From the NCBI GenBank assembly GCA_017542465.1, contig JAFXXB010000040.1, forward strand, positions 24,301-88,300: a stretch of 64,000 bases of DNA, read 5' to 3'. A model generated the notes under the pieces. It did not search any database and was not told the origin of the DNA. It was given only the letters and a program-made list of their open reading frames with translations. The translations under genes were made by a program, and so were the position numbers. The DNA is from Bacilli bacterium (GTDB taxonomy: Bacteria; Bacillota_I; Bacilli_A; RF39; UBA660). Below, piece after piece: positions 24,272 to 25,990 of this stretch; within the stretch, counting starts at the first letter, position 1; the number at the start of each line of letters is the position of its first letter.

Positions 24272-25644
24272 GATTTCCTTATTTCAATATATTCAGGATA
24301 ATCGTTAATAAGTTCTTTAACAAAAGGACTTATTTTTTTGTTTATAAGTATATATATTTTATTCTTAGTTCTTGTTAAAGCAACATAGAATAATCTTCTT
24401 TCTTCTTCGTGTAATATATAATCTTTATCATTAAGAACATATCTAAGTATTCTTTCATTCTTTATATTATTAGGTATATTATCTGAATTAACTAAGATTA
24501 CATTATCAGATTCTAAACCTTTAGATTTATGTATTGTGTATTTATTATCATATGAGAGTTTATCAATATCTTTATTATTTCTTCCTAATATCATTGGATT
24601 ATCTATTTTATCTATTATATCTTCCAACTTATATCCAAATAATATAACTATTGGTTTATCTAAATCTTTATTAGATACAATACTTTTCTTTAATTGTTTA
24701 GGGTTCTTCATAACAAATGATGATGATACTTTGATAAGTTCATTTGAGTTCCTATATGTGTATTTAAGATAATATACTTTAACATCATCAAAGTATTTAT
24801 GGAAGTTAATAAAAGTATCTAAGTTACATCCTGAAAACCTATATATTGATTGAAAATCATCGCCTACACAGAATAACCTAGAGCCGGTGTATTTAATTAT
24901 TTCTTTAATAAGATCAAATCTAACAGGTGAAGTATCTTGAAATTCATCTATAATAATGTATTTAAAGGGTAAATTAGATGTTTTAACCTTATTTATTGCT
25001 AAAGATATCATATCATTAAAATCTATTTGATTAACCGACTCTAATTCTCTTTTATAGAGTATATATATTTCTAATATAATTCTTAATAACTGTTTTTCAT
25101 TAAAGTATGAATGTTGATAAAACTTAATTAAATCATATTCATCTTTATTATTACTTTTTAGAAGATTGATAAATGTTTTAATTAATATTTTTAGATTCTT
25201 ATAATTATATGTATTAAATATATTACTAGTTTCATCCATATATAAGATATTCTTGAATAATTCTTTTCTATTTTTATCATTCATTATAAATGATTTAAAG
25301 TATTCATCTACTACATAATCTATATATTGATCTTGGCATACTGAATAACCATCACCTATTATCTTTAATCCTAGTTTATGGAATGTTAATACTTCAATAT
25401 CATATCCAATATCTAATAGTTTATTATGTAGGCTTATTGTAGTCTCATTAGTGAAAGATATAGCTAATATTTCATCTTTCTTATATCCTTTTACTTCAAT
25501 TAAATACTTAATTAAACCTAATATAGTTAAGGTTTTACCTGAACCAGCACCAGCCACTACTAGTGTATTTTGAGCATCACTTTTAATAACATTTATTTGA
25601 GTATCATCTAACTTATAACTATTAATTGTAAATAATTCATCCAT
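24268..25644 (-). CDS. UvrD/Rep-family (helicase IV-like) DNA helicase
   Basis: The motifs are Walker A '[12 protein letters not shown]', '[11 protein letters not shown]', 'YRFSGC', '[15 protein letters not shown]' and '[18 protein letters not shown]'. The RBS is AAGGGGAAAG. Confidence 0.85.
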
Positions 25645-25692
25645 ATATACTTTCCCCTTGATTTATAAAAATTCATAATATACAATGTAATT

Positions 25693-25770
25693 AGAGGAGT
25701 GCATCACCAACTGATGCTATCTCCTTTTTATAGGGATGCATCTAGTTTTTTCTAGATGCTTTTTATTTTA
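25693..25770 (+). ncRNA. candidate small RNA with two hairpins, each followed by a T-run; possible type I antitoxin
   Basis: A possible promoter is TTGATT (25658-63), 17 nt, TACAAT (25681-86). Hairpin 1 is GGAGTGCATCA...TGATGCTATCTCC plus T5 (25696-25729). Hairpin 2 is GCATCTAG-tttttt-CTAGATGC plus TTTTTATTTT (25738-25770). The T-runs occur only on the + strand. The ends are not determined. Confidence 0.3.
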
Positions 25771-25792
25771 CCTCCCCATTGATCCGTTCTGA

Positions 25793-25861
25793 TTAAAGTG
25801 CTAGTAAAACAATAATTACTAATAATAGTAGAATTAAAAGTTTTAACTCTGTATTATTCAT
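25793..25861 (-). CDS. candidate 22-aa hydrophobic peptide (type I toxin-like)
   Basis: The product is 'MNNTELKLLILLLLVIIVLLAL*'. GGAGG lies 7 nt upstream of the ATG. This SD is buried in the 3' arm of an ~11-bp hairpin (GTTATCTCCAG-taaa-CTGGAGGTGAT). Confidence 0.45.
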   Translation of the reverse strand: MNNTELKLLILLLLVIIVLLAL

Positions 25862-25954
25862 GTAATCACCTCCAGTTTACTGGAGATAACATCCAGGTGA
25901 TATTTTCCACCCTCTACTATTCTTATTAACGATAAATCTTCAAATCTCGAATAA

Positions 25955-25990
25955 AAAATAAAAAAAGTTGTAATTTCTTACAACTTTTTA
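25955..25990 (-). terminator. rho-independent terminator of addA
   Basis: On the - strand: GTTGTAA-gaaa-TTACAAC followed by T7ATTTTTT. The stem includes the addA stop codon. Confidence 0.75.

Follow-up and report, generated by a model that had tools for sequence, protein, structure and literature searches.

A candidate multicopy, insertion-polymorphic type I toxin-antitoxin module between addA and a helicase gene in an uncultured rumen bacterium of the Bacilli

Layout of the addA-helicase gap

We analyzed a 64,000-nucleotide (nt) stretch of the genome of a Bacilli bacterium (GenBank assembly GCA_017542465.1, contig JAFXXB010000040.1, positions 24,301 to 88,300), which we call the window and whose own numbering is used throughout. 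This study concerns the gap in the window between the minus-strand gene addA and a helicase gene, which is filled by one copy of a repeated ~300-base unit, a candidate type I toxin-antitoxin module. An earlier note, made from the sequence of this single locus, had read it as a toxin mRNA with a convergent antitoxin small RNA, and every feature that it described was located where it had been placed (Table 1). The addA gene ends at 25978, upstream of the module; its best NCBIfam match is AddA, with a score below the curated cut-off, and the gene on the other side, which starts at 25644, is a UvrD/helicase IV-like helicase gene by profile match, in agreement with the names first given to the two neighbors. 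The terminator of addA overlaps the addA stop codon (25980-25978), and a matching terminator is also found upstream of the empty site in a relative, G005.

On the minus strand, the predicted toxin leader begins with TAGAGGG directly after a promoter block, the −10-like TAAGAAT of which ends ∼5 nt upstream of TAGAGG. A Shine-Dalgarno (SD) sequence, GGAGG, lies at 25873-25869 within the 3′ arm of a hairpin and is followed 7 nt later by the ATG of a 22-codon open reading frame (ORF). Past the ORF stop come, in order, an SD-like AATGGGGAGGTA, an A-run, the central hairpin, a C/A-rich linker, and GGAGATAGCATCAGTTGGTGATGCACTCCTCTA (25724-25692). On the plus strand, stems are formed at 25701-25717 (within an outer stem of ∼25693-25727) and at 25738-25759, each with T-rich sequence after it, and a scan found three terminator-like sites in the locus, compared with 0.1 expected in shuffles; the central hairpin scored as terminator-like on the plus strand only. 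The 88-nt plus-strand stretch folded at −29.4 kcal/mol (z-score −4.9), and the minus-strand stretch, folded as a single RNA, at −77.5 kcal/mol (z −5.3). The untranslated stretch had been called GC-richer; a rise was present (0.27–0.31 compared with 0.13–0.27 nearby), but it was slight.

Table 1. Features of the addA-helicase gap, in window coordinates
Feature	Position	Strand	Sequence, evidence or remark
Intrinsic terminator of addA	25960..25989	-	Hairpin AAAAAGTTGTA/TACAACTTTTT (AAAAAGTTGTA...TACAACTTTTTTT), AT-rich, with T-run; read from the sequence
Putative toxin promoter block	25917..25951	-	TTCGAGATTT-N9-TCGTTAATAAGAATAG; promoter role inferred
Predicted toxin mRNA, ∼225 nt	25692..25916	-	TAGAGG...CCTCTA; both ends inferred; conserved unit aligned over 29 copies
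5′ arm of the long-range 5′-3′ pairing	25880..25916	-	Holds anti-SD GAUGUUAUCUCC; duplex energies, wobble asymmetry, covariation
SD-sequestering hairpin	25865..25890	-	GTTATCTCCAG (25890-25880), loop TAAA, CTGGAGGTGAT (25875-25865)
22-codon ORF, putative membrane toxin	25793..25861	-	MNNTELKLLILLLLVIIVLLAL; ATG at 25861, stop ends at 25793
SD-like 12-mer in the toxin 3′ untranslated region	25769..25780	-	AAUGGGGAGGUA; identical across 8/8 copies of subfamily A
Central hairpin	25738..25759	both	GCATCTAG-N6-CTAGATGC; on the plus strand, with T-run 25760-25769, predicted antisense terminator
3′ arm	25692..25724	-	GGAGAUAGCAUC...CACUCCUCUA; partner of the 5′ arm, SD imitation, predicted antisense target
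Predicted antitoxin RNA, ∼73–78 nt	25692..25766	+	5′ stem-loop, linker, terminator hairpin with U-run
Antisense promoter	25658..25686	+	TTGATT-17-TACAAT; promoter scan and fixed register across copies

Copies of the module and their genomic settings

Type I systems are usually multicopy, and the expectation that this one would recur was borne out both in its own genome and in relatives. In the assembly that holds the window (G000; 1.09 Mb, 27% GC), in which copies were located by BLAST, there are eight intact modules, one decayed copy, and one antitoxin-only half. The copy on contig C28 is 95% identical to the window copy, and that on C7 has a different ORF between the same two ends, indicating that the two mRNA ends move together. 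A tandem pair lies behind polC on C26, and further copies lie on C46, C24, and C41. In the decayed copy (C43:1132-1371), ATG has become ATA and the central hairpin is lost, with the complementarity of the 5′ and 3′ ends still visible. The antitoxin-only halves (C4:16876-16972 in G000 and ∼2411-2504 of locus L013 in the relative G007) both lack leader and ORF by deletion and keep the central hairpin, the 3′ arm, and the antisense promoter and terminator; the G007 half sits behind polC, like the tandem pair in G000. Another relative, G004, has at least two tandem copies followed by a third promoter block.

A covariance model built on the 3′ half of the module gave 51 matches in 9 of the 12 species of the genus, with 2–11 per genome (genomes of 1.0–1.5 Mb), and the module was absent from the other 3. 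Beyond the genus, 200 other genera of the family yielded no more than two weak matches to the model, and 400 sampled genomes of the class yielded none apart from those in the genome of the window. A pattern scan of 185,579 species genomes yielded ∼20 true hits, all of them in low-GC rumen or gut metagenome-assembled genomes labelled Bacilli, Bacillales, or Tenericutes. BLAST against plasmids and phages and a pattern scan of IMG/VR returned no true match, the two viral pattern hits being chance occurrences in unrelated DNA.

Seven other species of the genus have a spacer of 40–110 bp between addA and the helicase gene, with no module in it. In G005, which has one of the two helicases most similar to that of the window (69% identity), the spacer consists of the terminator and a TTCGAGATTT promoter block, followed by the helicase gene, and in G011 the same site holds a copy of the other peptide subfamily. 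These comparisons indicate that the module at the addA-helicase site is an insertion that is polymorphic within the genus, as judged from sequence. Sequence divergence between occupied and unoccupied sites is too great for element borders to be set or target-site duplications to be recognized; the inverted repeats are internal and start from the predicted 5′ ends of the RNAs.

G000 has 14 instances of the promoter block, of which 9 stand before toxin leaders (those of the eight intact modules and of the decayed copy on C43) and 5 before ordinary genes, which include ABC ATPase-like and Bro-N-like genes. It is 35–42 nt long, follows directly after terminators, and has the form TTCGAGATTT-N9-TCGTTAATAAGAATAGTAG(A/G)GG; relatives have ...GTGTATATATA(A/T)AGTAGAGG at the same position. 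The block therefore appears to be a general promoter type of the genus that lies outside the mobile core of the module. Boxes of the ECF (extracytoplasmic function), SigH, and ComX types were considered for it and rejected on inspection, as no spacing fitted, and we left it as a sigma-70-like −10 with an upstream TTCGAGATTT box (the TTCGAG box) and no sigma assignment.

Since the block stands directly before the helicase gene in G005, the window copy sits between that promoter and the helicase. Within 25644-25692, no clear helicase promoter was seen besides the TTACAT-17-TATAAA pointed out in the earlier note; together with the arrangement in G005, this suggests that helicase expression in G000 may depend on read-through across the module. 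The same arrangement, along with the lack of a toxin-strand terminator between module and helicase, could favor the alternative that the peptide is a leader peptide or attenuator of the downstream helicase gene. However, other copies in G000 flank MnmA/DnaG, bL21, a HIT protein, a radical SAM enzyme, and PolC/KilA-N; they precede unrelated genes or face convergent ones (HIT, radical SAM, bL21, KilA-N), and in the seven species mentioned above the spacer does without a module. The leader reading, which had been raised at the outset, is contradicted by these contexts, and we rejected it as the least probable of the explanations considered.

Peptide gene, toxin mRNA, and small RNAs

Twenty-nine distinct full copies, encoding 27 distinct peptides, were used for coding analysis. 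The ORF encodes 21–27 amino acids across the distinct peptides. Column entropy was 0.39 bits at codon position 2, compared with 1.30 and 1.37 at positions 1 and 3, and T was the middle base of 93% of core codons, compared with 31–36% in the other frames. This coding constraint indicates that the ORF is a real gene, with a hydrophobic helix that appears to be under selection. All the peptides have a short polar head followed by 15–17 uninterrupted hydrophobic residues, and they fall into two subfamilies, M-x-K-x-E-L-K, which includes the window copy, and M-I-K-R-x-D...F-N/K/R/E. Ten peptides were looked up in a collection of 15 billion proteins and none was present, indicating that they have never been called as genes. 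Rfam, searched at gathering and at permissive thresholds, gave nothing relevant at the locus.

The 3′ untranslated region of the window copy contains AAUGGGGAGGUA, a perfect SD-like sequence that is invariant in 8 of 8 copies of its subfamily and has no start codon after it. This sequence could be another anti-SD partner, or a decoy. The other subfamily has a different G-block at this position, a further exact copy lies at C6:4606-4617 in G000, and a search for an RNA complementary to the block, as it stands in the window copy, turned up nothing besides module copies and one likely ribosome-binding site.

Sequestration of the SD, as in type I systems, was seen in 28 of 28 distinct leaders, in which the SD hairpin has a mean energy of −12.3 kcal/mol (z −4.0); the isolated window leader folds at about −14 kcal/mol (z from about −4.4 to −5.0). 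The pairs close to the SD are near-invariant, and those close to the loop covary, appearing as CG, GC, AU, UA, and GU, with G·U wobbles that fit the toxin strand only. Conservation of the peptide ORF and of the SD stem in relatives had been proposed as a check on the toxin-antitoxin idea; both are kept in the 29 diverged copies, from at least nine species, with the coding signature described above and with compensatory changes. In the central hairpin, 98% of cells are paired and three of the eight pairs show compensatory double changes.

A third helix, of ∼30 bp, joins the extreme 5′ end of the predicted mRNA (UAGAGGGUGG...GAUGUUAUC) to its extreme 3′ end (GAUAGCAUC...CACUCCUCUA). RNAalifold, applied to the full-length alignment, recovered only the two local hairpins, since the long-range helix is of variable length in its outer parts, which fall out of register. 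For this reason, the helix was tested by cognate and non-cognate energies, by wobble asymmetry, and by a fixed-register alignment of its core. Mean duplex energies of the 5′ and 3′ arms were −34.6 kcal/mol for cognate pairs, −26.5 for non-cognate pairs (arms of other copies), and −12.1 for shuffled arms. In the core alignment, 7 of 14 pairs showed double changes, and 0 of 500 shuffles reached the observed score. Mismatches on the toxin strand comprised 89 G·U and 8 A·C, indicating that the selected structure is that of the minus-strand RNA rather than of a DNA repeat.

This asymmetry bears on the possibility that the unit is a structured repeat or miniature mobile element, in which the inverted repeats act at the DNA level, the ORF is incidental, and the plus strand is silent. 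Multiple copies, insertion polymorphism, and a long internal inverted repeat are all features that such an element would share. However, the repeat begins at the predicted RNA starts and not at the element ends, the codon positions are strongly constrained, a promoter faces inward in fixed register (see below), and the plasmid, phage, and viral collections held no match. Taken together with the excess of G·U over A·C on one strand, these features led us to reject a miniature inverted-repeat transposable element as a very improbable explanation.

The 3′ arm, xGAGAUAGCAUC, is similar in sequence to the SD region, xGAGGUGAU, and the anti-SD (GAUGUUAUCUCx′) pairs with either, so that the SD/anti-SD and 3′ arm/anti-SD pairings are mutually exclusive. 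Of 25 distinct copies, 15 show covariation of the base x′ with both of its partners, in the combinations C/G/G, G/C/C, G/U/C, A/U/U, and U/A/A. By partition function, opening the RNA from SD through AUG was calculated to cost 9.6 kcal/mol in the free full-length mRNA, compared with 11.9 with the last ∼80 nt masked, and the modelled cost was higher on 3′ masking in 26 of 29 copies.

Long-distance closure admits another logic, that of hok/Sok or aapA/IsoA, in which the 5′-3′ helix is an inert store, 3′ trimming activates the mRNA, and the antisense RNA mainly triggers decay without re-locking the SD. An inert full-length mRNA held by 5′-3′ pairing is documented for hok and for aapA1/aapA3 (PMC6733600), the helix found here encloses both RNA ends, and most of the SD is predicted to stay paired when the full-length RNA is folded, as its opening cost shows. 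In contrast, the partner of the 3′ arm in the module is the anti-SD rather than the SD, and masking of the arm is predicted to tighten the SD hairpin; moreover, the segment that would be lost on trimming is the one to which the antisense RNA is complementary, whereas the antitoxins of hok and aapA target the 5′ region. We consider a type I module with this logic unlikely.

In nine loci (L010, L025, L032, L013, L014, L028, L037, L039, and L070), the leader has an extra 5′-terminal hairpin, UAGAGGG...CCCUCUA. In these loci UAGAACG... comes next and pairs with the 3′ end CGUUCUCUA, which gives the 3′ end two alternative 5′ partners in those copies.

Each of the two plus-strand hairpins had been described as followed by a T-run. 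Both T-runs are present in the window; that of the first hairpin is not conserved across copies. Beside the central hairpin, every copy keeps an A-run on the toxin strand, which gives the antisense strand a hairpin and U-run terminator. The promoter TTGATT-17-TACAAT, noted earlier on the plus strand with the caveat that such hexamers arise by chance in DNA this AT-rich, was also found by our scan. For the single site the caveat holds, since the locus has 8 promoter-like sites compared with 9.3 expected, and the significance of the promoter comes only from its conservation across copies: TTGAnn-17-TAnAnT stands on the opposite strand, downstream of CCUCUA, in identical register in 21 of 28 distinct copies. 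The mean best score was 9.5 of 12, compared with 7.2 in random 60-nt windows of the genome, 12% of which reach 9.

The antisense RNA is predicted to start at about UAGAGG, the same opening as that of the toxin mRNA, and to be 68–92 nt long (mean 74), with the same two-hairpin fold in 29 copies (mean z −5.25). It would be fully complementary to the last ∼75 nt of the toxin mRNA, with an overlap from 25692 to ∼25766 that lies wholly inside the toxin 3′ untranslated region and ends short of the ORF. A candidate antisense RNA gene with its own promoter and terminator is thus recognizable at the sequence level. A further terminator-like site was seen on the plus strand at 25880-25896, the complement of the SD hairpin region (CTGGAGATAACATCCAG then GTGATATTTT), and a read-through antisense transcript would end there, spanning the whole ORF. 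Four points go beyond the earlier description: the pairing between the two ends of the mRNA, the putative promoter of the toxin gene, the recurrence of the module in multiple copies, and the lack of conservation of the first T-run.

A second small RNA may be connected with the sister subfamily. This RNA of ∼100 nt is encoded on the minus strand of contig C1 in G000 (C1:68889-69024; locus L103:590-725) and consists of two hairpins, an invariant single-stranded GUAUAUCAACCAAAACCCCCUGAAG, and a terminator. It had no Rfam match and is conserved in at least 8 of the 12 species of the genus, including all three that lack the module, and we refer to it as the core small RNA. A block complementary to GUAUAUCAACCAAAACCCCCUGAAG, for example UCAGGGGGUUUUGGUUGAUA, is carried in the 3′ untranslated region by 19 of 29 copies, all of the I-K-R-x-D subfamily, to which the window copy does not belong. 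The complementary stretch is ∼17–26 nt long, is in every case located downstream of the stop codon and upstream of the central hairpin, and forms duplexes of −18 to −33 kcal/mol, compared with about −10 for shuffles. This complementarity suggests a trans-acting second layer of control or, alternatively, sponging of a host small RNA by the toxin mRNAs.

Proposed mechanism and relation to known systems

We consider it highly probable, from comparison of the copies, that the unit is a toxin-antitoxin module of some kind. Another explanation for the conserved ORF is a benign small membrane peptide, a regulator or subunit of a membrane complex, that is tuned by an antisense RNA and has no addiction role. 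Selection for a hydrophobic helix is no proof of toxicity, and many small membrane proteins are harmless. However, 2–11 copies in genomes of 1.0–1.5 Mb and absence from 3 of 12 species are not what such a peptide would lead one to expect, nor are tandem duplicates, a decayed copy, and antitoxin-only halves. The insertion polymorphism at the addA-helicase site, the unrelated neighboring genes elsewhere, and the multiple layers of translational locking also speak against it; all of these features are typical of selfish modules. We regard a benign peptide as rather improbable, somewhat more so than the hok-like logic discussed above.

The original reading of the locus as a toxin mRNA with a convergent antitoxin small RNA gains support from these comparative data. 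More specifically, the window copy probably represents a type I toxin-antitoxin-like module that is multicopy and insertion-polymorphic and works as follows. In the nascent toxin mRNA, the SD would be locked by the anti-SD. Once the 3′ end is made, the 3′ arm, as an imitation of the SD, would take the anti-SD away from the SD, and the resulting 5′-3′ closure through the ∼30-bp helix would protect both ends of the mRNA and hold the SD less tightly. The antisense RNA, whose 5′ half resembles the mRNA 5′ end, would compete for the same 3′ arm; on its binding, the anti-SD would return to the SD, and the long RNA duplex would be a substrate for RNase III, a gene for which is present in the genome. 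Only complete mRNAs that evade the antisense RNA would then yield the peptide, which may damage the membrane, as do other very short type I toxins. This scheme presumes transcription of both strands, the given order of folding, cleavage by RNase III, and toxicity of the peptide.

Several observations weigh against this interpretation. The peptide has no match to known toxin families, as searches of Pfam and NCBIfam with seven peptides at E-values up to 10 gave only chance-level matches. The copies are related, so the pair counts that describe covariation do not represent independent events. Even in the "free" state the SD is costly to open (7–14 kcal/mol) and is well buried in both states, and the predicted effect of the antisense RNA, at ∼2.4 kcal/mol in thermodynamic models only, is modest. 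The copies in G000 have no U-tract terminator after the 3′ arm that would set the 3′ end of the toxin mRNA, and transcription of the toxin may run into the helicase gene; the distant relatives L058 and L073, unlike the G000 copies, do carry a U-tract. In addition, ∼8 of 20 hairpin variants have a U·G pair on the toxin strand that amounts to a C·A mismatch in the antisense terminator.

Among described systems, the module comes closest to bsrG/SR4 of Bacillus subtilis, both in its layout and in the way it is predicted to act. When SR4 binds bsrG mRNA at the 3′ end, the SD helix grows from 4 to 8 bp and RNase III-dependent decay is promoted (PMC3834814). Like bsrG/SR4, and also txpA/RatA, bsrE/SR5, and yonT/SR6 of the same species, the module has convergent genes that overlap at their 3′ ends only, and it too belongs to the Bacillota; a small hydrophobic toxin and an SD held in a hairpin are likewise shared with bsrG/SR4. 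A similar effect is predicted here, with an 11-bp hairpin compared with one of 5 bp, a difference of about +2.4 kcal/mol in the models. BsrG, however, has 38 amino acids compared with 22–24 here, and neither the peptide nor the RNAs of the module show sequence similarity to that system or hits in Pfam, NCBIfam, or Rfam. The module differs further in that its ∼75-nt overlap stops short of the ORF, that the antitoxin target is the docking site of the mRNA 5′ end, and that its toxin mRNA, in the genome of the window, shows no U-tract terminator.

With hok/Sok of plasmid R1 and aapA/IsoA of Helicobacter pylori, the module shares a self-closing mRNA and membership in multicopy chromosomal families. 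The hok and aapA mRNAs close by a long-distance 5′-3′ interaction, and local SD hairpins are possible during their transcription (PMC6733600). In those systems, the SD or a translation activator is hidden by the long-distance pairing, 3′ trimming is needed for activation, and the antitoxin acts at the 5′ region, whereas the 3′ arm of the module is an imitation of the SD that pairs with the anti-SD and is itself the predicted target of the antitoxin. The logic of the module is thus probably inverted relative to hok.

Other type I systems are more distant. Ibs/Sib of enterobacteria has very short toxins (Ibs, 18–19 amino acids; here 21–27) that are almost wholly hydrophobic, and it is likewise multicopy and often arranged in tandem. 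However, Sib covers the whole ibs ORF, whereas the antisense RNA predicted here covers only the 3′ untranslated region, and the two systems come from different phyla and share no sequence relationship or profile hit. Fst/RNA II (par of pAD1) and Fst/Ldr-like loci have in common with the module convergent toxin and RNA genes, occurrence in the Bacillota, and a 5′ structure that limits translation. The conserved proline and charged C-terminal tail of Fst are absent from the module peptides, which have no Pfam hit, and the module lacks the shared bidirectional terminator and the 5′ direct repeats.

Taken together, the conserved anatomy of the copies, the coding constraint, the covariation in three helices, and the conservation of a promoter and a terminator for the antisense gene are best read as a new, previously undescribed type I toxin-antitoxin family of bsrG/SR4-like build in uncultured rumen bacteria, a reading that rests on comparison of sequences. 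A wider proposal is more tentative, and we hold it as possible but doubtful: that the antitoxin mimics the 5′ end of the toxin mRNA within a switch of three states (nascent and locked, self-closed and permissive, antisense-bound with re-locking and cleavage), and that in the sister subfamily the core small RNA acts as a trans-acting second antitoxin or is itself sponged.

To our knowledge, small toxin systems are almost unknown in uncultured gut and rumen bacteria with reduced genomes, because their genes are too short to be called. The module family would add both a new type of toxin and a new RNA design, one that would join the self-closing mRNA of hok/aapA with the 3′-overlapping antitoxin of bsrG/SR4 in a single switch. 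With up to 11 copies in genomes of ∼1.1 Mb, the modules represent a notable load; they sit before housekeeping genes and may affect the expression of these genes, the helicase gene of the window being an example. If the proposal for the sister subfamily is true, a host small RNA and a selfish module would be wired together in these bacteria.

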